Origin: an uncultured delta proteobacterium
GTDB taxonomy: Bacteria; Myxococcota_A; Polyangia; Polyangiales; Polyangiaceae
Assembly: GCA_963782055.1 (NCBI GenBank)
Contig: CAWAIF010000003.1
Location: 5,696,001 to 5,760,000 of the forward strand
DNA: 64,000 bases
Reading direction: 5' to 3'
Below are positions 692-57,539 of this stretch, in pieces (positions within the stretch are counted from its first letter, which is position 1; each line of letters starts with the position of its first letter). The notes beneath the pieces were generated by a model that did not search any database, was not told where the DNA came from, and saw nothing but the letters and a program-made list of their open reading frames with translations. The translations under genes were made by a program, and so were the position numbers.

Positions 692-809
692 CTGTCCCCC
701 CTGTCCCCCCTTCCCGTCCCCGGACACCAACCGTCGAATTGCAAGCACGCCTGCCGTTCGACGTTTCGCGGGGAATCCGTGAGGGGGGGCGGGTGGCATG
801 GGGCGTGCT
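692..809 (+). promoter_or_regulatory. Sigma54-type promoter (TGGCAT-N5-GTGCT, 794-809) with upstream GTCCCCGGACAC palindrome (716-727) and CTGTCCCCC repeats
   Basis: GG-N10-GC spacing exact (GG 795-796, GC 807-808); same architecture upstream of the paralog at 25950-26070. Confidence 0.65.
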
Positions 810-820
810 GATGGGTGGGG

Positions 821-1396
821 ATGGACCCTGTGTTCTTCACTCTCAAGCGCGCGTACTACGCGACGCTCAAGCTGACACGGCGCGCGCTTGCGGCGATGGG
901 GCTCACGGCGGCGCGCTACGACGTGCTCGATGCGCTCCACCGGCTCGGGTCGCGCTGTGTTCACCTTCAGAGCCACCTTCGGCGGGCGATGGGCGTGGCG
1001 CGCTCCACGATCAGCGTGATGATGCGGTCGCTCGAGCGGATCGGGCTGGTGACGCGGCGGCGTGACGGGCGCGACATCCTCGTCGAGCTGACGGCGGAGG
1101 GGCGGCGGCGCGTGCGACGCGCCTTCTTCGGGCTCGTGCTGGTCGGGCACGTCGGCTCGGCGCTGGACGGCGCGCTCGCGCCCGGGCAGCGGCGCTGGCC
1201 TGCCCCGCGCGCGTGCGCCCGAGCCCGGCGGCACCTCCAGGTGCTCTGCCTGCGCATCAGGGACGGGTTCGGCGACGAGGCCGAGCTCGACCTCGTCGGG
1301 AGTATCTGGTGGCACCGCGAGCAGGACCGCGTGCGCCACCTGCGCCAGCGTCTGGAGCAGCGCCGGCGTCAGGTCGACCTCGGCGACGTCGCTTGA
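821..1396 (+). CDS. MarR-family winged-helix regulator with C-terminal extension (copy A)
   Basis: GLTAARYDVL..QSHLRRAMGVARSTISVMMRSLERIGLV..DGRDILVELTAEGR is a MarR wHTH signature; ATG at 821 aligns with the paralog start. Confidence 0.85.
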   Translation: MDPVFFTLKRAYYATLKLTRRALAAMGLTAARYDVLDALHRLGSRCVHLQSHLRRAMGVARSTISVMMRSLERIGLVTRRRDGRDILVELTAEGRRRVRRAFFGLVLVGHVGSALDGALAPGQRRWPAPRACARARRHLQVLCLRIRDGFGDEAELDLVGSIWWHREQDRVRHLRQRLEQRRRQVDLGDVA

Positions 1397-1561: not shown

Positions 1562-2518
1562 CTAGACCCGTGTGCTCGGCGCGGTCCAGTCCACGATCGG
1601 TCCCCTGGGGACGATGCGGGTCGGGTTGATGGTGGGCTGGCTGCGATAGTAGTGCTGCTTGATGTGGTCGAAGCTCACCGTCGAGGCGACCGGGGCCATC
1701 TGGTAGACGGCGCGCGCGTAGTCCCAGAGCGCGCGGTAGTCGACGAGGCGCCGCAGGTTGCACTTGAAGTGGCCGTGGTAGACCGCGTCGAAGCGCACCA
1801 GCGTCGTGAAGAGGCGGACGTCGGCCTCGGTGAACGCGTCGCCCATCAGGAAGCGCGAGGCGGCGAGGCGCGCCTCCAGCCAGTCCAGCGTCCCGAAGAG
1901 CGCGGTGACCGCCTCGTCGTACGCCTCCTGGCGCGTGGCGAAGCCCGCCTGGTAGACGCCGTTGTTGACCGTGTCGTAGACGCGCGCGTTGACCTCGTCG
2001 ATCCCCGCGCGCAGCGGCTCGGGGTAGAGGGGCGCGAGCGGCCGCGTCGACAGCGGGTCGAAGGCGTCGTCCAGCATGCGCAAGATCTCGGAGGACTCGT
2101 TGCTCACGATCGTCGCCTCCCGGGTGTCCCAGAGCACCGGCACCGTGACGCGCCCCGTGAAGTGCGGGTCCGCCCGCGCGTAGATCTCGTGGAGGTAGCG
2201 CGCGCCGAAGAGGGGGTCCGGGACGCAGCCAGGGCCGTCGGAGAACGACCAGCCCTGCTCGCCCATGAAGGGGTCCACCACCGACACCGGGATGGCTTCT
2301 TCCAGCCCCTTGAGCGCGCGCACCACCAGCGTGCGGTGCGCCCACGGGCACGCGAGCGAGACGTAGAGGCGGTAGCGCCCCGGCTCCGCCGCGAAGCGCG
2401 CGCCTGGCTCGCGGCTGACCCACTGCCGGAAGGTGGCCGGTCTGCGCAGGAAGCGCCCCCCGGTCGAGGCGGTGTCGTACCCACAATCCTCCCACACGCC
2501 GTCCACCAGCAGTCCCAT
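1562..2518 (-). CDS. yqjG: Glutathionyl-hydroquinone reductase (omega-like glutathione S-transferase)
   Basis: MGLLVDGVW, RYRLYVSLACPWAHR, GRVTVPVLWD, IVSNESSEI, NNGVYQAGFA, YHGHFKCN, HIKQHYYRS motifs. Confidence 0.93.
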   Translation of the reverse strand: MGLLVDGVWEDCGYDTASTGGRFLRRPATFRQWVSREPGARFAAEPGRYRLYVSLACPWAHRTLVVRALKGLEEAIPVSVVDPFMGEQGWSFSDGPGCVPDPLFGARYLHEIYARADPHFTGRVTVPVLWDTREATIVSNESSEILRMLDDAFDPLSTRPLAPLYPEPLRAGIDEVNARVYDTVNNGVYQAGFATRQEAYDEAVTALFGTLDWLEARLAASRFLMGDAFTEADVRLFTTLVRFDAVYHGHFKCNLRRLVDYRALWDYARAVYQMAPVASTVSFDHIKQHYYRSQPTINPTRIVPRGPIVDWTAPSTRV

Positions 2519-2598
2519 TGCAAGCATTGTGGCGGTGGAACGGGCCGGAGCCAACCCGCGCGCGGGCCCCGGGGGGGCGCGGGCCCTATACTCGCAGG

Positions 2599-25062: not shown

Positions 25063-25297
25063 CGTTTGCACCCCGAAGCTCGACGTTGGCAGCGCACGGC
25101 CGCGCTGGCAAGCGCATTTCACGCTGACCTGGTGCGTCGACGCAGTCACCTCGCAACTTTGCCGTGACGCCGCATCTCCATGTCCGGAGCGTCCGGCCTG
25201 GCCAACAGCCCGGCCCGTGCGGGGCCTGCCGAGCACGACCTGGGAGCGGCGATCGTCAGCATGCTCACGGTCCATCGCTCCAGCGCGTCGTGCGACC

Positions 25298-25936
25298 TCA
25301 TGCCCGTCGCCGGCCGGGGACGAAGGGCTCGAGCATGGCCGCTGGCCACTCGAAGGGGTCGCCGGAGTCCCGCCGCTGCTCGGCCCGCCACCGCGCTTCC
25401 ACCCGCTCGCGCTGGTCACGCTGCCTCCAGCCGGAGAACGTGGTGTCGCCCTCCGCCGGGTGAAGCGTGGCGACGTCACCGAACGCCGTCCGAAGCCGGT
25501 CGTGAAGCTTCGTGAGCCACCGGCGCGCGCGCCCGCACGCCTTGGGGTGCGGCCAGTGATGCTCGTCCGCCGAGAGCGCGGAGTCCGTGGTGAGGTCGAT
25601 GAGCCCTGTGCGCACCAGGCTCCTGAACGCCCTCGACACGCGACGGCGTCCCTCCGTCGTGAGCCGGACGTCGACCTGTCGCATATCGTCGAGCGGGGGC
25701 AGGCGCTCGACGAGGCCGATGGCCTGAAGCGAGCTGACCATGCGGCTGACGGTGGAGCGCGCCACGCCGAGCCCCTTGCGCAGATCGCTCTGGTAGCAGA
25801 AGTGATGCGGCGTCCGGAGCAGCGCGCAGAGCAGGTCGAAGCGCGCCGGAGTGAGCCCGAAGCGCGCGAGCAGCCGCCGCGTCACGCGCAGCGTCGCGTA
25901 GTACGCCCGCTTGGTACCGAAGAGGAGAGGTGTCAT
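25298..25936 (-). CDS. MarR-family winged-helix regulator with C-terminal extension (copy B)
   Basis: GLTPARFDLL..QSDLRKGLGVARSTVSRMVSSLQAIGLV..VRLTTEGR; clear paralog of 821-1396. Confidence 0.85.
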   Translation of the reverse strand: MTPLLFGTKRAYYATLRVTRRLLARFGLTPARFDLLCALLRTPHHFCYQSDLRKGLGVARSTVSRMVSSLQAIGLVERLPPLDDMRQVDVRLTTEGRRRVSRAFRSLVRTGLIDLTTDSALSADEHHWPHPKACGRARRWLTKLHDRLRTAFGDVATLHPAEGDTTFSGWRQRDQRERVEARWRAEQRRDSGDPFEWPAAMLEPFVPGRRRA

Positions 25937-25949
25937 GACACCCTCCCAG

Positions 25950-26070
25950 AGCACCGTCCGTGCCACCCCCCCCTTCCCCACACACGCCCGGGAAAGACGG
26001 CCCGTGCGTTGGCATGCGAACGATCGGAGGGTGTCCCCGGACAGCGGGGGGGTGTCCCCGGGACAGGGGG
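25950..26070 (-). promoter_or_regulatory. Sigma54-type promoter (TGGCAC-N5-GTGCT) with two upstream TGTCC-N-GGACAC palindromes
   Basis: Minus strand TGGCACGGACGGTGCT (25965-25950); tandem CTGTCC(C)GGGGACACC at about 26030-26044 and 26051-26066. Confidence 0.7.
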
Positions 26071-30568: not shown

Positions 30569-30599
30569 GCCGCCACGCCCATCGTTAGCCGGCTGACGT

Positions 30600-31946
30600 T
30601 CACGGGAAGGCGAGAATTTTCGCCGAGCCGGGGACCATGCCGTCCGTCCCTTCCGGTCGGGTGAGCGCCACGACGTAGCACTTCGCCCCCTCGCACCCGG
30701 CGAACGCCAGCCCGTCGGCCGCCTGGTCGACGTGCCCCGTCGCGCCACCCCCCACCACCGGGCGATACGACAGACCCTCGAAGGGAATGGGCCCGCCCGC
30801 ACCCGCCACCCGCGCCGCGTGCGTCCCCCACGCGACCATCAGCTTTCCGCCCGGAGCGCCCACCCAGAAGGGCCCCAGATCGTGCCCGCACCCACCGTGC
30901 GCCACCTGAACGAGCTGCTCCTTCGGAGCGGCGACCGCCGCGCGGTCGGCCACGATCGCCTCCAGATCGATCGCCTGCGCGCCGTCGCAGCGCGCGCTGG
31001 CGTCGCGCGTGAGGACGATGCCCGCGTGCGCCGCGTCACCGTCCACGGCGACCACGTCCTCGTCGCGCGCCAGGACGTGCCCGAGCCGCCTCGCCGCGGA
31101 GAGCGCGCCGCCGTGCTCGAGCTCGCGCACCGTCATGCGCCCCCCGGCGGTGAGCATGACGGTGACCAGATCGTCGCCCACGGTGAAGTCGTCGTGCTCG
31201 CTCGGGTCCTCGTCGCCCAGGTCCTCCGGGCCGAGCAGCGCCACGCGCTTGCCGCCACCGAGCGCGCGCGCGTGCAGGTCGTCATCGCCGGCGTCGAGGA
31301 GGTACACCTTGGACTCGCCGCAGGCCAGCCGCGCCTCACGCTCCTCGGGCACGGTGGCGGCGGTCCTCGCCGCGCCGCCCGCGAAGGGTCGCGTGATCGC
31401 CTTCGCCGGACCGCCTCCCTCCTGTACCCAGGCGATCTCGCCGCTGCGCGTGGCGCACACGAAGGCGCCGACGTCCTCCGGGGCGCCGGCGGGCCGCCCG
31501 TCCGCGCCCACCACCTGCATGCGCCGCACCGGCTTTCCCTTCTGCGGACCCCGCCACACCACCGCCACGCCGCCCGACGAGGCCACGGCCTCCACCTCCG
31601 CGTCGGCGCTCCAGTCGACGTCGGGCACGGCGTCGATGGTCCACTGCAGCGTGCCATCGGTCAGGTAGCGGCTGACGTTCACGGCGTGGCGCGCGGCGAC
31701 GAGGCCCGCGACGTAGACCGCGCCCCCGGCGAGGTCCGCGGCGATGGGCAGCGACAGCGGCGCCGGGCCCCCCCCCGAGGGCGCGGCGCCGGAGGCCGCG
31801 GGCGCCGCGGAGACGGACGCGGCCGAAGCACCTCCCGCCTCCGCCTGCTCCTCTGCACGGGGAGGCTCGCTCCCCTTGCAGGACCCGCACGCCGGCGAAC
31901 CGGCAGCCACGAACGCCAAGCACGCCAGCAGGAAGGTGCGTCGCAC
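30600..31946 (-). CDS. Hypothetical lipoprotein, beta-rich
   Basis: Signal peptide with Cys (PACGSC); GTG start; coding-like bias. Confidence 0.7.
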   Translation of the reverse strand: MRRTFLLACLAFVAAGSPACGSCKGSEPPRAEEQAEAGGASAASVSAAPAASGAAPSGGGPAPLSLPIAADLAGGAVYVAGLVAARHAVNVSRYLTDGTLQWTIDAVPDVDWSADAEVEAVASSGGVAVVWRGPQKGKPVRRMQVVGADGRPAGAPEDVGAFVCATRSGEIAWVQEGGGPAKAITRPFAGGAARTAATVPEEREARLACGESKVYLLDAGDDDLHARALGGGKRVALLGPEDLGDEDPSEHDDFTVGDDLVTVMLTAGGRMTVRELEHGGALSAARRLGHVLARDEDVVAVDGDAAHAGIVLTRDASARCDGAQAIDLEAIVADRAAVAAPKEQLVQVAHGGCGHDLGPFWVGAPGGKLMVAWGTHAARVAGAGGPIPFEGLSYRPVVGGGATGHVDQAADGLAFAGCEGAKCYVVALTRPEGTDGMVPGSAKILAFP

Positions 31947-31966: not shown

Positions 31967-33235
<1,269 letters not shown>

Positions 33236-33304
33236 CGGTGCCCCATCGGGACGCCGCGCCTCTCGGTTTCGCGACTTCGCGGCGAGCTGCCGCATTCGCC
33301 GGGG

Positions 33305-34820
33305 GTCTCTGCTTAGCGGCCGGAAGACGGCCCGCGGCCCGGGCGTGACGTCGACCGTCGGAGGACTCGCCGGCTAGTGGGCAAAGACAGACGGAGGCGG
33401 CTTGCCGTGGAGGTGACTTTCGTACAGCCCGATGACGAAGCCCCGAAGCGGGAGCCGGCACTTGCGCCGCGTCTGCGTGATGCTCATCCAGTGCGCCAGG
33501 GTGGCGCTGCCGGCGGCCGAGCGCGTGCCGCCGGTCATCGCGCGGTGCCGCCCGTGGGCGCGGATGTCGCGTTCGGTCGCGTTGTTCGTGGCCGGGACGT
33601 CGGGGCGGTCGATGAAGAGCGTCACCCCCACCTTGTGCTCGTCGAGGCGCTCCTGCAGCCGGACGATGTCCGGGAACTCCACGAAGTTGGTGCTGCTGAT
33701 GAGATGGCCGAGGCGGATGCGCGCGCCTCGGCGCTGCTCGGGATCGCCGCTCGCCGCGGCGTGCTTGCCCGCGACGTAGAAGCCGATGAGTCGGTCGCGG
33801 AACTCCTCGGTCGCGGCGCACGGGGTGAGCTCGGCGATCTTCTTCGCCTCGCGGATGGTGTGCGCACCGCAGTAGGCGTGGGTCCAGCCGTCGTGACTCG
33901 TGTACACGCCGTAGAAGTCGGTGCACAGGACTCCTTTGAAGCTCGCGCCGAGCATCGACTCGGCGACCCACGCGCCGCGCGACAGCTCGGCGCGGAAGAC
34001 CGAGACGCGGTCGGTGCGCATCAGCCACATCCAACCCGGCACGCCGTCCTGTCGATGGCCGCTCTCGTCGAGGCCCGCCACGGGCGATGCGCGCACCGCG
34101 TCGACCAGCTCGTCGTAGCTCGGCGCCGAGCGGCGTCGCAATCGGTCGAACATCTGCGCCAGGCCGCCGGTCGTGATCGAGATGCCGAGCCACTGTCCGA
34201 GGAACGCACTGATCTTGCCCAGCGGCATGTCGCGCTCGAAGCGCAGGTCCAGCGCCATCGCCTGCACGTTGGGGCCGAACGACACCGCGGCGACGCTCTT
34301 GCCCGCGGCCGGCGCGCCCGGCAGCTTCGCGACCACGCGCTTGTGGCACACCTCGCAGCTGCCGACGTGCGCCACGTGATGCGTCTGCCGCGGCTGCACC
34401 ACTGGGATGTCGGTGACGACTGTGCTGTCCGTCTCGCCCGTCGCCACGACTGCCCCGCCACAGCTGCACGTCGCCGGCATCTCGTGCACGACTTCGTCGT
34501 CGACGTGGGCCGGTGCGGCGGGCCGCGATCCGACATGGCCCGCCTTGCGGCCGCGTGGCTTGCCCGAGGCCGCCCGCCGACCCTCGGAACGCGACGTCCG
34601 CCGCTTCCCGCGCTCGCGGAACCCCCGCTTCCACTCCTCGATCTCCTTGCGCAGCTTCGCCAGCTCCTCGCGAAGCGCGGCGTTCTCCTGCTCCAGCTCC
34701 TGGATCCGCTGCTCGGGCGTCACGTGATCCGGGATGCTCCCGATCAGGCCCCATGGAAAGAACTTCTCGCATCAGGAACGAAGAATGGACCCACAGTGTG
34801 CGACACCGCTAAGCAGACAC
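33305..34820 (-). mobile_element. IS66-family insertion sequence, single-ORF (ISBst12-like) type, 1516 bp
   Basis: Terminal inverted repeats GTCTCTGCTTAGCGG (33305-33319) and CCGCTAAGCAGACAC (34806-34820), 14/15 match; 8-bp direct repeat CGCCGGGG at 33297-33304 and 34821-34828. Confidence 0.93.
33374..34723 (-). CDS. IS66 DDE transposase
   Basis: N-terminal coiled coil, CSCGG..CEVC zinc finger, LDESG, CTDFYGVY, CGAHTIRE, ATNNATERDIR. Confidence 0.93.
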   Translation of the reverse strand: MTPEQRIQELEQENAALREELAKLRKEIEEWKRGFRERGKRRTSRSEGRRAASGKPRGRKAGHVGSRPAAPAHVDDEVVHEMPATCSCGGAVVATGETDSTVVTDIPVVQPRQTHHVAHVGSCEVCHKRVVAKLPGAPAAGKSVAAVSFGPNVQAMALDLRFERDMPLGKISAFLGQWLGISITTGGLAQMFDRLRRRSAPSYDELVDAVRASPVAGLDESGHRQDGVPGWMWLMRTDRVSVFRAELSRGAWVAESMLGASFKGVLCTDFYGVYTSHDGWTHAYCGAHTIREAKKIAELTPCAATEEFRDRLIGFYVAGKHAAASGDPEQRRGARIRLGHLISSTNFVEFPDIVRLQERLDEHKVGVTLFIDRPDVPATNNATERDIRAHGRHRAMTGGTRSAAGSATLAHWMSITQTRRKCRLPLRGFVIGLYESHLHGKPPPSVFAH

Positions 34821-34883
34821 CGCCGGGGGGCCCGGCGGATCGTCAGCATGCTCGCGATCGGGCGGTCGACCCGGCGGTCGCCG

Positions 34884-46328
<11,445 letters not shown>

Positions 46329-52024: not shown

Positions 52025-55000
52025 TCACTTCTTCGCGCCCTTGGACTTGGACTTGTCGTCCTTCTTGTCGTCCTTCTTGGCGGGCGCGGCGTCCGCCGTG
52101 GGGGCGGGGTGCCAGACCTCGCCGCCCATGGTGAGCGGCGGGGGCTTGTCGTCGAGACCGCTGTTGGAGAGCGTCGGCGCGCCGCGCAGCTCGTCGACGA
52201 CGTGGTACTCGGCCTTGTAGTTCTTCGCGAGCCAGACCTCGCAGGCGCGGGAGAACGAGTCGAAGTACTGGTACTTCACCGAGTAGTTCAGGCAGGTCAC
52301 GAGCGCGGGCTTCGCGCGCTGCACCTTGATGGGCTCGCTCGCGCCGTCCAGGCTGTCGAAGTAGTTGCGCTTGAGATCCGCCCAGGCAAGCGAGCCGGCG
52401 GTGCCGGGCACGAAGCCCTTCTTGTCCCAGTCCTTCGGGTACGGGGCGCGACGGAAGTCGTCCACGTAGTTGCCCCAGAGGAGGCCGACGCGGGAGCCGG
52501 CGGCGATGACCCACTTCGGCGGGGGCTCGGGCTGGAGGTCGACGATCTTCTTGTACTCGGCCTCGACCTTCTTGATCGCCTCTTCCTTCTTCTTCATCCA
52601 CGCCTTGACCTTGGTGTTCACGTGCTTGAGGACGTCGTCCTTCTTGCCGGACCCGTGGTACTCGGGGAATTTGATGGTATCGACCGTCTTGCGCTTCTGC
52701 TCGTCGGCCGCATAGAAGATGGCCTCGCCGACGGCGTTGAGGGCCTTGCCGAGGCGCTTGGCCTTCTGGCCCTGGTCCTCGTCGGGGTAGGCGTCGTTCA
52801 GCTTCTTGACCGCCGCCGCGGGATCCTTCCAGAGGGAGCGGACCTTGGCGTACTCGGAGTCGGCGCCGGTCTTGCCCTTGAGGTGGGAGTAGGCGCGGCC
52901 GAGCGTGGCGTGGGCTTGCACCTGCACGTCGATGCCGGCGCGGCCGATGAGGCCCATCGCGCCCTTGAGGGCCTTCTGGGTGGCGTTCCAGTCTTCCTTG
53001 TCGGCGTAGTGCGCGCCGATGGCGAAGGCGATGGAGGCCGCCACCTTCGGCTTGGCGTGCCCGTAGCTGTGCTGGAAGAGCGTGGCGTCGTCGATCGCCT
53101 TCTGCTCGTCGCCGAGGCCGAGGCGCAGGAGGACGGCGTCGGAGAGGGCCTCGTCGGCGTGCTCACCGTGCTTGTCTTCCTTGGCGTAGCGCTCGTACCA
53201 GTCGGCCGCCTGGTCGTAGACGGCGATGGCCTGGTAGTTCCCGCCGATCTCGTAGACCGCCTTCTTGGCGAGCGGACTCTTGTCCATCTTGTTGGCGGGG
53301 TTGAGCAGGATCATGCGGGCGGCGATGGCCTTCGCGATGAGGCGGCCCGCCTGGAACGCCTTGGCGGCGTTGTAGACGAGCTCGTCGCACTTCTCCGCCT
53401 TCGGCGCCTCGCCGTTGCGGATGGGGGTCTCGCAGTACTTGCGATAGACCTCGAGGTAAGCGCTTCCGGCCTGCTGGTAGTTCTGCAGGGCCTCGGTGCC
53501 GCCCTGCTTGTCGGCGATCTCGACGAGCTTCTGCGCCTTGAGGCGGAGGATGTCCGTCTGGATCTTGGTGAGGATGCCGCACTGCTCCTCGTTCTTCTTC
53601 GCCTTGTCCGCCGAGCAGTACAGCTCGAGGAACTTCGGCACGTCCTTCGACATGTCGTCGTAGCAGGACGGCCTGGCAGGGCTGCCGTGCGCGCCGAGGA
53701 CGTTGATGCTCTCGAGGTAGAGCTGCGCGGCGTAGATGCCGACGTCCTTGTCGGCGTTGTTCATCGCGATGTCGCGGAAGGCGAACGCCGACTCTTCCCA
53801 GTGCTGCGCCTCGAAGTAGGTGCGGGCGCGGGCGTACTTGACCTCGACGAGCTGGTCCTGCCCCGTGCTGTCCTGCGGACCGGGGTGGATGTAGCAAATG
53901 TAGCGGTTGAAGGCCGAGATCATGCCCTTCTGCTGGGCGGTGAAGTCCTTGGGCTTCAGCTTGGTGTCCTCGTCCTCCTTGGCCTTCTTCTTCTTGTCCT
54001 TGTCCTGGCCGGGGAGGTTGCCGCTACCCTTGCGCTCCGAGCCCTTGGGGTGCTCGGCCTCGTAGATGTTCTGGTAGCAGAGCACCGAGGCGTAGGCGGC
54101 CTCGGCGGCCTCCGGCGCCTGCGGGTTCTCCGCGACGACCGCGTCGAACGCGGGACCGCAGTCCGCCCACCGCTTCTGGAAGTAGAGCAGGTCGGCCATC
54201 GCGTACTTGACCTTGTAGATGGTCGGCCAGTCCGCCTTGACGATGCGCGGGAAGGTGAACTTGGAGTAGTCGGCGGCGGTCCACGTATCGACGACGCGCT
54301 TGTACAGGTACGCGGCGAGCGTCATCGTCTTCATGTCGCCGGTGCCGCGCTGCCCCTGCGAGCCGACGGCCTCGAGGTGCCACGCCATCGCCGTCTCGGT
54401 CACGAGAGCGGCGGTCTTGTTGGAGCACGCCTCCACCGACTTGGGCGAGTGCTTGCCGTCCTTGAACGCCTTGTAGGCCTTGATCTGGTTGTCCAGCTCC
54501 TGCTTGATGCTGTCCTTGTTGCCGGACTTCATCGCGAGGGTGGCCTCCGTGATGTGCGCCTGGTACTCGCAGGCCTTGTCGCTCCCGTGGTCGCGGACGA
54601 GCAGGTCCTTGTAGAGGGTGACCGCCTCCGGGTAGTGGCCGGTGTCCAGGTAGTTCTGGCCGAGATCGTCCATCATCTTGAACGTCTTGCCGTTGGATCC
54701 CTTCGCGTCACCCGAGATGTTGCGGAAGAAGTTGTACGCCTGCCCGGGGTCGCCCTTGAGGGCGTAGACCGGGATGACGTCGCGGCGCGCGCTGTCGGCG
54801 AGCTTCGCCGCGCCGGGGTACTGCGTGTAGTTCGTGCCGAAGTCGATCGTGTGCTTGAACGCGTTGAGCGCCTTGTCGAAATCGCCCTTGTTCCAGAACA
54901 CGTACGCCAGCTTGTACCAGGCGTACCCGTAGACCTTGCTCTTCTCCGGCGGGAACTTGATGACCTCCGCGTAGGCCTGGGCGGCCAGGTCCCACTTGGA

Positions 55001-55798
55001 CGGGTCACCCTGCGCCTCGTTGAAGAAGAGCTCGCCGAAGGCGAGGTACGCGTTCGGGATGTACTTGGAGTTCGGCTTCTTCTTGATGAGGTCGTAGTAG
55101 ACGCGCCGCGCGTTCGCGAGGTCGTTCGCCTGCTCGTACTCGTAAGCGAGGTAGTAGAGCACCTCGTCGAGCTGCCCGTAGTTCGGGTACTGGTCGACGA
55201 TGAGGGTGTAGTACTGGACCACCTTCTTGCGCGCCGCGAGCATGATGGCGTTGGCCTGGTTGGCCTGCGCCTGCTTCTGCCCGGCCGCGCTGGGGTTCTT
55301 CTTGCGCAGCCCGTCGCGCGCGATCTCCGCCTGGGTCTTGTCGCGGAAGGCCGCGCTCTCCAGCTCGACGTAGTCCTCCGCCATGCGGCGGGCGAGCTGC
55401 ACGCGGTCGGGCGCGTTGCGCGGGGTGGTGCGGAAGAGGTTCTCCAGGCCGGCGATCTCCGTGACGAGCAGGGCGCGACCACGCGCCTGCAGACGGCTCT
55501 TGCGCAGGTCGCGGGGCTGCGTGGTGGTGGGCGCGTTCGGGGTGCGCTGCTGGTTGCGCTTCTTCAGGTCCGCGGGGGGCGGAGCCGAGTGGAAGTTCAC
55601 CTGCGGCGCGTTGCCGTGCTTGCTCACGTTGAAGGCCGCGGGGCCCTTGTTCTCGCAGGCCTCGAGCTTGGTCTTGGCCTCCTGAGAGATGCAGGCGCCG
55701 CCGGTGGTGGTCGCCGCCGGCGCGTCCGCCGCTTGCGCGGCGACGCCGAACGTGACGCCCAGAAGGACGACGAGCGAAGCAAAAACCGGCCGGATCAT
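52025..55798 (-). CDS. gltD: Gliding-motility periplasmic TPR protein GltD (AgmU)
   Basis: Signal peptide; ~1260 aa TPR clusters (YPNYGQLDEVLYYLAY, SKYIPNAYLAFGELFF, YAWYKLAY); synteny. Confidence 0.85.
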   Translation of the reverse strand: MIRPVFASLVVLLGVTFGVAAQAADAPAATTTGGACISQEAKTKLEACENKGPAAFNVSKHGNAPQVNFHSAPPPADLKKRNQQRTPNAPTTTQPRDLRKSRLQARGRALLVTEIAGLENLFRTTPRNAPDRVQLARRMAEDYVELESAAFRDKTQAEIARDGLRKKNPSAAGQKQAQANQANAIMLAARKKVVQYYTLIVDQYPNYGQLDEVLYYLAYEYEQANDLANARRVYYDLIKKKPNSKYIPNAYLAFGELFFNEAQGDPSKWDLAAQAYAEVIKFPPEKSKVYGYAWYKLAYVFWNKGDFDKALNAFKHTIDFGTNYTQYPGAAKLADSARRDVIPVYALKGDPGQAYNFFRNISGDAKGSNGKTFKMMDDLGQNYLDTGHYPEAVTLYKDLLVRDHGSDKACEYQAHITEATLAMKSGNKDSIKQELDNQIKAYKAFKDGKHSPKSVEACSNKTAALVTETAMAWHLEAVGSQGQRGTGDMKTMTLAAYLYKRVVDTWTAADYSKFTFPRIVKADWPTIYKVKYAMADLLYFQKRWADCGPAFDAVVAENPQAPEAAEAAYASVLCYQNIYEAEHPKGSERKGSGNLPGQDKDKKKKAKEDEDTKLKPKDFTAQQKGMISAFNRYICYIHPGPQDSTGQDQLVEVKYARARTYFEAQHWEESAFAFRDIAMNNADKDVGIYAAQLYLESINVLGAHGSPARPSCYDDMSKDVPKFLELYCSADKAKKNEEQCGILTKIQTDILRLKAQKLVEIADKQGGTEALQNYQQAGSAYLEVYRKYCETPIRNGEAPKAEKCDELVYNAAKAFQAGRLIAKAIAARMILLNPANKMDKSPLAKKAVYEIGGNYQAIAVYDQAADWYERYAKEDKHGEHADEALSDAVLLRLGLGDEQKAIDDATLFQHSYGHAKPKVAASIAFAIGAHYADKEDWNATQKALKGAMGLIGRAGIDVQVQAHATLGRAYSHLKGKTGADSEYAKVRSLWKDPAAAVKKLNDAYPDEDQGQKAKRLGKALNAVGEAIFYAADEQKRKTVDTIKFPEYHGSGKKDDVLKHVNTKVKAWMKKKEEAIKKVEAEYKKIVDLQPEPPPKWVIAAGSRVGLLWGNYVDDFRRAPYPKDWDKKGFVPGTAGSLAWADLKRNYFDSLDGASEPIKVQRAKPALVTCLNYSVKYQYFDSFSRACEVWLAKNYKAEYHVVDELRGAPTLSNSGLDDKPPPLTMGGEVWHPAPTADAAPAKKDDKKDDKSKSKGAKK

Positions 55799-55799
55799 A

Positions 55800-57539
55800 T
55801 TACCTCCCACACTTCGACGTGATGGACTGGCGGTAGAAGCCGAGCTCGTCGCGCCAGTACTCGCCGTTGAAGGGCCAGATGACGTGCTCTTCGTCGGGCT
55901 TCACGATGTTGGCCTTGGATTCGGCCTGGGTGACCTGGCTCCCCTGGATGGCCTGGTCGAGCTGGTTGCGCTGCGCCGCGGTGATGTCGATGAGGATCTT
56001 CGCGCTGTCGCGGAGGTGCTCGTTCAGCTCGTCCAGGTTGCGCTGGTAGCGCTGGCGGGCGAGCTCGCCGGCGTTGCGGACCGCGAGGTCGCGCGCGAGC
56101 TGCAGGGCGTCCTTGACGTCGGCGCCCAGGTTGGACTCCTGGAAGTCGTGCTTGGCGTGCTTGAAGCGCGTCGCCTCCACGTCGAGGACGTGGACGTACT
56201 CGATGTTGCGGAGCAGCTGGCGGTCGGAGAGCGCGAGCTCGACGATCGGGCGGATGTTGGCGGAGAGGTTCGCCTTGTTGGTGCCCTTCTCCTGATCCTC
56301 GCGCACCTGCTTGAGGAACTTGAAGAACGGCTCCTCCTGGTTCTCGCCCTTGAAGCGGGTGAGGACCTTGTTCAGGTCGTCGTAGATCGGCTGGTACTTC
56401 TGCTGGAACTTGGCGACGATGACGGTGGCGTCGTCGTACTGGCAGTTCGCGAAGTAGATGACCGCGCGGAGGACTTCCGCCTCGGGGTAGTAGCTGTTGG
56501 GGAAGTACGGCGCCTGGATCGTGTGGATGTTGCCGAGCGCGTGCGGGTAGTCGCCCGCCATGAAGTAGGCCCAGGACTCCTCGAAGAGGCCGTCGAGCCA
56601 GTACTCACTCGTCTCGTCGATCTTGTTCCAGAACTTGACGGCGGCGCTGAGCTTCTGCGCGTCGATGCTCGGCGCGTTGTTCTCGTCGAGGCGGACCGAC
56701 GCCGAGTAGTAGGTGCGGGCCATCGAGAGGAAGGCGAGGTCGCGCATGCGCGCCTCGTCGTCGACGCCCTCGGCGCCCTCGTCGATCGCCTGGACGATCT
56801 TCTGGAAGGCCTTCACCGCCGGCACCGACTTGCGGAGCTGGACGTTGGAGATGCCGGTGAAGAACTGCGACTGGACGTAGTACTTGCTCTGCCGGTTCAC
56901 CTTGCCGAAGAGGCGCAGCGCGTCCTCGTACTGGCGGTTGCGGTACTTGTACCGCCCGAGCAGGTAGTTGAGCTGCCAGTACAGGTCGCGCTGGTTCGGG
57001 TTGTTGAACTTGGCGATCTGGTCGTCGTTGTACTTGCCGACGCGCTCGACGATGTCCGCCGGCTCCGGGAGGTCGGTGGCGAGCTTGGAGAGCCAGAGCA
57101 GCGTCTCGTTGAACTTCAGGTGGTTCGGCTTGTCGGCGATCTCGCTGAAGATCGCGTAGGCCGCCTGGAAGAACTTCATGCGGTAGAGCGCGATGGCGAG
57201 CTCGTACTGGGCGATCTGCTTGTTGCCCTCGTCGTCGCCCGTCTCGCCCTTGCGCACGCGGTCCAGCGCGAGGGCGGCGGCCTCCCACTTCTCGCTGTCG
57301 AAGAGGCGCTTGGCCTGCGCGGCCTGCTCCGTCATCTGGCCGGCCTGCGGGGGCGGGGAGTTGTCGACGACGGGCGCCGCCGGCTGACCGTTCTGCCCAC
57401 CCTGGCCGCCCTGGGCGGCGGCGTCGGCGTCGAGGTCGACGGGCTGCGCCGTTTTGGGCTTGGCCGCGAAGGCGGCCGTGGTGCTCGAGAGAGCGATCGC
57501 AGACGCCAAGAGGAACATGCGCGCCACCGGTTTACGCAT
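55800..57539 (-). CDS. gltC: Gliding-motility periplasmic TPR protein GltC
   Basis: Signal peptide; TPR; LFEESWAYF, ALGNIHTI, YYPEAEVL; C-terminal WPFNGEYWRDELGFYR..SKC. Confidence 0.85.
   Translation of the reverse strand: MRKPVARMFLLASAIALSSTTAAFAAKPKTAQPVDLDADAAAQGGQGGQNGQPAAPVVDNSPPPQAGQMTEQAAQAKRLFDSEKWEAAALALDRVRKGETGDDEGNKQIAQYELAIALYRMKFFQAAYAIFSEIADKPNHLKFNETLLWLSKLATDLPEPADIVERVGKYNDDQIAKFNNPNQRDLYWQLNYLLGRYKYRNRQYEDALRLFGKVNRQSKYYVQSQFFTGISNVQLRKSVPAVKAFQKIVQAIDEGAEGVDDEARMRDLAFLSMARTYYSASVRLDENNAPSIDAQKLSAAVKFWNKIDETSEYWLDGLFEESWAYFMAGDYPHALGNIHTIQAPYFPNSYYPEAEVLRAVIYFANCQYDDATVIVAKFQQKYQPIYDDLNKVLTRFKGENQEEPFFKFLKQVREDQEKGTNKANLSANIRPIVELALSDRQLLRNIEYVHVLDVEATRFKHAKHDFQESNLGADVKDALQLARDLAVRNAGELARQRYQRNLDELNEHLRDSAKILIDITAAQRNQLDQAIQGSQVTQAESKANIVKPDEEHVIWPFNGEYWRDELGFYRQSITSKCGR

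Follow-up and report, generated by a model that had tools for sequence, protein, structure and literature searches.

The question raised by this locus is what two paralogous MarR-like genes, standing apart in a window of 64,000 nucleotides (the whole stretch of DNA analysed, C3:5696001-5760000 of the 7.58 Mb genome of its host, a soil myxobacterium), are doing behind leaders of similar layout and sigma54-type promoters. A first-pass annotation had read them as a dispersed, repeatedly inserted module and offered two alternatives, a co-activated regulon or a mobile cassette, and both of these are true at once. The MarR-family cassette, ~700 bases with one small DNA-binding gene, occurs at 58 loci across all three contigs, in three subfamilies (tblastn, E < 1e-8), which rules out a reading in which only the two copies exist, and empty sites in relatives support repeated insertion. 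It is likely a selfish element that spreads without a transposase of its own, by a route and to a benefit that we infer from the comparisons below. The full reading, which we hold at a probability of roughly 60%, is that a competence activator would act at an upstream site (P1) to give a sigma54-driven pulse, with self-repression at a second site (P2), recombination in competent cells as the means of spread, and switches of DNA-binding specificity.

Both copies in the window (Table 1) exceed the Pfam cut-offs for MarR_2 (PF12802) and also PF01047, in keeping with their earlier description as paralogous MarR-like genes. The cassette genes are mostly intact and under purifying selection, with a core pN/pS of 0.27 in subfamily A (40 copies), 0.15 in B (6) and 0.53 in C (8) over 54 copies. 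Proteins of 160-215 residues are encoded by 54 of the 58, the remainder being one truncated, two frameshifted and one lacking a stop codon, with possible assembly errors among them, and nearest-neighbour copies are 74-99.8% identical. Copy A returned 40 database matches (30 close, the other 10 at 42-48% identity). At E < 1e-30 the wider family numbers 253 representatives; its named relatives belong to the Myxococcota and, when assigned to a family, mostly to the Polyangiaceae. Within the Polyangiaceae the family is present in at least 24 of 201 genomes and at least 13 of 89 genera, counts that are lower bounds with 17 candidates scored per genome. Six relatives from the genus (G001-G006, the host genome being G000) have 5-16 matches each, and a second large expansion is evident in one MAG, which supplies 37 of the best 80 loci. 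A phage origin was considered and rejected, as none of the 10 pattern matches in viral contigs is a relative; metagenome contigs gave at least 598 pattern matches and, among the matches listed, one 18-residue match. The literature searched, which covered few subscription journals, describes neither the family nor dispersed cassettes of this kind.

Table 1. Features of the two cassette copies and lone P2-type sites, in window coordinates.
Feature	Position	Strand	Remarks
P1, copy A	693..727	+	tandem TGTCC half-sites ending in a GTCC..GGACAC palindrome; 5' cassette edge
P2, copy A	738..757	.	imperfect palindrome of 20 bp, lying within a longer inverted repeat (~729-766)
sigma54-type -24/-12 box, copy A	794..809	+	GG 795-796, GC 807-808; predicted start near 820
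MarR-family gene, copy A	821-1396	+	191 aa, subfamily A, helix residue 66 is Val
P1, copy B	26031..26065	-	two TGTCC..GGACAC palindromes
P2, copy B	26005..26024	.	C..G type centre, matches Arg at helix position
sigma54-type -24/-12 box, copy B	25950..25965	-	predicted start near 25939
MarR-family gene, copy B	25298-25936	-	212 aa, subfamily B, Arg at helix position 66
lone P2-type palindrome	2517..2536	.	start of yqjG-like gene
lone P2-type palindrome	25252..25271	.	directly after copy B stop codon
weak lone P2-type palindrome	30581..30600	.	convergent genes either side; score 14.9, near threshold
lone P2-type palindrome	34839..34858	.	upstream of IS66 transposase (33374-34723, -)

The cassette protein itself is an ordinary MarR. 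The predicted structure (pLDDT 81.7, pTM 0.60) has a full MarR fold over residues 1-150, the best Foldseek matches are MarR proteins over ~150 columns, and in the monomer model the N- and C-terminal dimerisation helices are predicted to flank the wHTH. What had been taken for a C-terminal extension (WP..C..FGD) folds as these ordinary helices, and only the part after about residue 150 is extra. A nuclease or recombinase hidden in the C-terminal part was looked for in the model and the Foldseek matches and none was seen, the MarR fold running throughout. The conserved Cys of the same annotation is present in 52 of the 58 copies here, but Cys132 occurs in 29% of 150 family representatives; the residues that are invariant across the family lie in the N-terminal helix, the TxARFD turn, Gln50, the wing and the Tyr/Trp tail.

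The leader is equally regular. All 58 copies have a sigma54-type box in the same position, with GG and GC ten bases apart, and rpoN is present in the host genome; the search pattern included the GG and the TGC, while the G before the TGC lay outside the pattern and is invariant nonetheless. Of the 78 family-type boxes in the genome, 54 lie at cassettes. The spacings reported for the window were all found and their layout is common to the 58 copies, which goes well past chance: the upstream palindrome is 66 bp (A) or 65 bp (B) from TGGCA, and the ATG follows the -12 C by 13 nt (A) or 15 nt (B), an in-frame ATG lying 13-15 nt past this C in 56 of the 58. The accompanying view that layout and not sequence is shared holds for the layout, but within subfamilies the leader sequence is shared as well. 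Similarly, the start of each unit close to the stop codon of an unrelated upstream gene is correct for the window (0 nt from the MFS gene in A, 15 nt from the amidase gene in B) and is not general, with a median gap of 61 nt and gaps of 20 nt or less in 4 of 40 copies. The leaderless starts, themselves predicted, are not universal because some relatives carry longer leaders with GGAGG. Lastly, a second palindrome between enhancer and promoter, P2, had been overlooked in both copies.

The upstream palindrome, P1, is likely the binding site of a host sigma54 activator of competence genes, judging from where else it occurs. P1 together with the box is also found upstream of a YifB-family gene (TIGR00368 above cut-off), which we take to be comM, of ssb, radC and comEC, and of a small gene that precedes a comEA-like gene by 77 bp (G000 C3:985106, 1344354, 1251437, 966551; C2:357458; L164-L184, L241-L260). 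The same combination precedes an XPB-like helicase gene, three IS91-type transposase genes, six Uma2 genes and one HEPN gene, and P1 also stands before genes unrelated to uptake (trypsin-like, Cys/Met lyase) and is absent from dprA and the pilin cluster. In 21 genomes of the order read by eye, most comM promoters show tandem sites followed by a box, with half-sites of the TGTCC type in the host genome and G007, TGGCC in G001-G006 and TGGCG in other genera. Half-sites of the TGGCC type, three to four each, also lie at comEC in 6 of 6 and at radC in 5 of 5 genus relatives. The P1 of a cassette is of the type found in the genome around it, with mixed cassettes in G003 and with the comM promoter of G219 cut by a contig end. 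That P1 changes sequence along with comM, comEC and radC across relatives points to a signal of the host's competence regulon and not of the cassette, so that the "self-contained" module with "its own" enhancer of the earlier description gives way to a unit that borrows from its host. The accompanying proposal of a sigma54 activator site and a co-activated regulon gains support from this co-occurrence and co-variation with host competence promoters, which would extend to a predicted sigma54 competence regulon across the Polyangiales with an upstream site of lineage-specific sequence. A study on Legionella names comEA, comEC, comM and radC together with comF as competence genes (PMC12378983), a set resembling that sharing P1 in the host genome, the difference here being a sigma54-type promoter with tandem upstream sites. 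In the literature searched, with few subscription journals covered, no sigma54 competence regulon is described for myxobacteria.

Several further loci were noted. A PilR-like gene was rejected as the activator, its pilin cluster having no P1; a cassette copy lies beside this gene at the convergent end of the type IV pilin cluster (G000 C3:3085712). The window also includes an FHA-domain sigma54 activator (31967-33295, -). The IS91-type (Y2) transposase genes with P1 and box (G000 C3:4409731, 5267020, 2732868) may also fire during DNA uptake. The six Uma2 genes and the HEPN gene (G000 C3:6896789-6911203, 1711916) each have their own leader of P1 and box, and five of these P1-led genes are clustered, with unrelated genes and what is presumably a WYL-type regulator between them.

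The second palindrome, which in most copies lies ~47 bp upstream of the GG, is likely the operator of the cassette's own protein, a view that draws on its co-variation with the recognition helix. With the central four bases masked, P2 was located in 143 of 153 rows (10 weak rows dropped), and the base at position 2 from its centre tracks residue 66 of the helix. Where this residue is Glu or Gln the site is of the G..C type (GG..CC) in 32 of 32 rows; where it is Arg or Lys it is of the C..G type in 101 of 103, the other two being asymmetric; and the eight rows with Val have mixed centres. Among 157 columns, 66 is the sole one with full mutual information on the P2 base. Residue and base each change four times on a tree of 126 rows (FastTree, column 66 omitted, six G219-type rows kept after thinning), with two of the four independent switch pairs on well-supported (starred) branches, a number at which a sign test cannot reach 0.05 (n = 4). 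Residue 66 aligns, in our numbering, with Arg65 of E. coli SlyA and Arg73 of MarR, and the commonest P2 core agrees with the palindrome upstream of slyA, the G219 core with those upstream of marR. Published work gives the Arg65-guanine contact as SlyA's single base-specific one (PMC3936728) and reports a SlyA consensus site (PMC5797941). The lack of autoregulation implied by the first-pass annotation is most likely wrong, as a separate palindrome co-varies with the recognition helix. Little DNA bending is described for four MarR complexes (PMC3737563), so P2 would act by blocking contact with the activator and not by IHF-like help. This pairing of residue and base would amount to a recognition code of natural origin in MarR proteins that turns on one residue (Arg/Lys versus Glu/Gln), the change having occurred four times. 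As a separate observation, the host genome has three tandem P2 parts of the leader with their flanks, and no P1, box or gene, at C3:4235005-4235298.

Sites of the P2 type also occur alone. A matrix trained on non-cassette intergenic sites identified 157 lone sites in the host genome and two in the reversed genome, and with an untrained seed pattern 67 of 75 non-cassette matches were intergenic. Pairing between half-sites is near expectation at most positions, with an excess at -9, -8 and -6 and slightly at -2. The host's pattern has 47 sites in its own genome and 0-1 in each of 40 others, the Glu-type palindrome has 7-57 sites in G001, G002, G004, G005 and G006 and none in the host genome, G003 or 34 other genomes, and G219 has 69 sites of its own type, cassette-linked and lone. 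By these pattern counts, the lone-site dialect follows the resident protein predicted to read it in each genome. Two readings of the lone sites were tried and rejected. Sigma54 bending sites do not fit, as a box lies near 7 of 157 lone sites and 151 of 2791 controls, and a conserved regulon does not fit, as 2 of 42 orthologous gene ends in the host carry a site, compared to 21 of 800 random ends (40 sites, drawn as 20 of 33 from G005 and 20 of 57 from G002). In the window, the lone palindrome upstream of the IS66 transposase gene adjoins a region with two very large genes (34884-46328, - and 52025-57518, -; ~3800 and ~1250 aa), which, at a guess from their N-terminal sequence, are probably repeat-rich gliding-motility-type proteins; a Pfam scan of the opposite-strand frames over both gave no match.

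The lone sites bear most directly on the rival that fares best, in which the expansion is host-selected: the copies would form a competence-phase pool of repressors tuning host genes through lone operators, arising by ordinary duplication and kept for dosage or new specificities. Many of the ~150 lone sites lie 30-200 nt from gene starts, one adjoins P1 at comEC in the host genome, and their half-sites seem to vary mostly independently, as protein sites do; purifying selection and the small number of broken copies fit a host benefit equally well. However, the sites are unconserved at orthologous genes, the comEC site is missing in 6 of 6 relatives (as read), and no insertion site is shared with relatives. 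Moreover, the family was not found in 177 of 201 genomes, while the layout of the competence promoter is order-wide. Each operator also matches its own helix even though ~30 Arg-type copies could bind in trans; a switched copy that kept its old site would meet these copies, and so the strict match in cis argues for selection on each cassette. A host-selected pool is consequently considered unlikely, although it is the alternative that we would take most seriously.

The turnover of insertion sites is more readily explained by a likely selfish cassette. Among 31 copies from genus relatives, 20 could be assessed with both flanks syntenic, and the host site is empty for 16 and occupied by another insert for 4, with none shared; among 72 more distant copies 5 were assessable, 4 empty here and 1 with another insert. 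Copy B shares a convergent junction with a redoxin-like gene, and the comparison across relatives showed this junction to be empty in three of five (26 bp in G001, 26 bp in G005, 126 bp in G004), with other inserts in G002 and G006. This junction is a hotspot, holding in G002 (L042) a small coiled-coil gene with a P1-like and two P2 sites upstream and in G006 (L041) two four-helix-bundle-like genes and a kinase cluster. The MFS-yqjG adjacency at copy A was not seen in the relatives; at the yqjG junction there is a family cassette in G005 and none in G001 or G004. Contigs from three sequencing runs, examined for a precise empty site, gave short fragments and no junction spanning the cassette. 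Convergent junctions hold 28 of the 58 copies where 10.7 are expected (p 2e-7, with our own gene calls), the neighbours differ at every site, and there is no adjacent regulated target gene. Some sites are common to G001, G004 and G005, which indicates that copies can be old and inherited.

The ends of the cassette are asymmetric. In 24 close pairs, which are non-independent, identity is 0.88-0.97 up to the stop codon, 0.42 in the next ten bases and ~0.33 beyond. No terminal inverted repeats were found at the cassettes (longest match 3-8 nt), there is no target-site duplication (mean longest shared word 5.26 in 57 copies and 5.33 in controls), and a search for a mobilising enzyme or end sequence found neither. 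In G219 it is the stop codon itself that varies, its position being fixed, and the sharp 3' edge may therefore come from selection and conversion instead of the mechanical end of an element; a four-gamete test for gene conversion gave a flat incompatibility of 0.60-0.66 (p 0.06). Two other sets of dispersed small genes, presumably four-helix-bundle-like (15 copies) and DUF559-like (13 copies, with a long inverted repeat), have conserved leaders and likewise end at stop codons (e.g., C3:918649, 2485733; C2:555901, C3:1402854), and this recurrence of leader plus gene suggests a general route.

That route could also be a borrowed one. The cassette might be a non-autonomous passenger, copied in trans by an IS91-type rolling-circle transposase or a group II intron reverse transcriptase, with its protein limiting its own expression. 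Rolling-circle movement gives one fixed and one ragged end without a target duplication, as observed here; the IS91-type transposases themselves carry P1 and box, the two other dispersed families end in the same way, and genes for reverse transcriptases of the group II intron type, all eight identical, stand at G000 C3:1993737 and at seven further loci. Yet the 100-bp end module of IS91, repeated many times in the genome, was not noticed by eye at cassette ends, the switching of operators and the lone operators would be left unexplained, and because a transcript from the sigma54 promoter lacks the leader, plain retroposition cannot copy the unit. We regard a passenger as quite improbable. It is hardly credible that P2 is instead a REP-like repeat or the site of another host protein such as an IHF-like bender, its correlation with the helix arising by descent, since for all the often perfect lone palindromes with genome-specific flanks and in pairs, the position of P2 between upstream sites and box where benders act at sigma54 promoters, and the small number (four) of independent switches, no Y1/RAYT transposase was found, both dialects within one genome follow the residue of the adjacent gene (including two single-copy switches), residue 66 holds the known base-reading position, the sites resemble the slyA and marR operators, and a sigma54-like box is as infrequent near the lone sites as near controls.

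The preferred reading, of a competence-driven and self-repressing cassette, can be set out as a sequence of steps. The host's competence activator would bind P1 and fire the -24/-12 promoter as DNA uptake starts, and from the leaderless message a MarR dimer would be made, which on binding P2, between enhancer and promoter, would end the pulse. Copies would enter gene ends, mostly convergent junctions, through the recombination active in competent cells and would then be trimmed or converted, such that homology runs no further than the stop codon. If residue 66 changes and the base changes to match, a copy would gain a private specificity, comparable to a new phage immunity type. Protein bound at P2 could, finally, shield its stretch from replacement by incoming DNA without the cassette; this protection from removal by transformation is the least certain and boldest step, one that we propose tentatively, and it would explain the pile-up of lone operators in the matching dialect. 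The same tentativeness applies to the larger claim of a new kind of minimal selfish element that taps the competence regulon, so that its protein is made as DNA comes in, binds its own operator and shields its stretch from transformation, which is doubtful as it stands. If true, lone operators would be driven through the genome by this bias too, as a counterpart of uptake sequences inside the cell, and heritable dialects would be set by one helix residue. How a gene can spread and remain intact with no transposase can be tested directly on this cassette, as can the proposal that insertions are purged by transformation and that elements withstand this.

Comparison with known systems places the parts of the cassette more easily than the whole. 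With the MarR/SlyA autorepressors (E. coli MarR, SlyA, MepR, OhrR) it shares the fold over residues 1-150, the wing Asp-x-Arg, a helix Arg at the position of SlyA Arg65 and a palindrome upstream of its own gene like the slyA and marR operators. It differs in a sigma54-type promoter common to competence genes, in the turnover of its sites, in standing without an adjacent target, and in the invariant N-terminal F-x-x-KR, the TxARFD and a C-terminal tail of the YPWHPDD type, and the protein falls below all NCBIfam cut-offs. Its 58 copies also compare to an average of about seven MarR genes per bacterium, as given in PMC6401476. The unit is not a member of the MITE, integron cassette or REP/RAYT classes tested. 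Like MITEs and other non-autonomous IS derivatives it is short, dispersed in many copies, missing at empty sites in relatives and without a transposase, but it lacks terminal inverted repeats and target duplications, its gene is intact and selected, and its 3' homology stops at the stop codon. Unlike an integron gene cassette it has no shared sequence after the stop (no attC), has its own promoter and is dispersed singly. REP/RAYT systems likewise consist of lineage-specific intergenic palindromes, in dozens to hundreds, tied to one gene family; here that gene encodes a likely DNA-binding repressor, half-sites seem to vary largely independently, and the genome, 97% complete, has 0 matches to the Y1 (RAYT) transposase family PF01797. 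In phage immunity types, repressor and operator change specificity together, and the cassette resembles them as a likely autorepressor that switches with its operator in cis, though with no other genes and no match in viral contigs. DNA uptake sequences (DUS/USS) form lineage dialects read by a surface receptor; the P2-type sites differ in being ~150-240 in number and mostly intergenic, with a cytoplasmic MarR as the likely reader, and share with them the lineage dialects of a short scattered motif and the link to competence.
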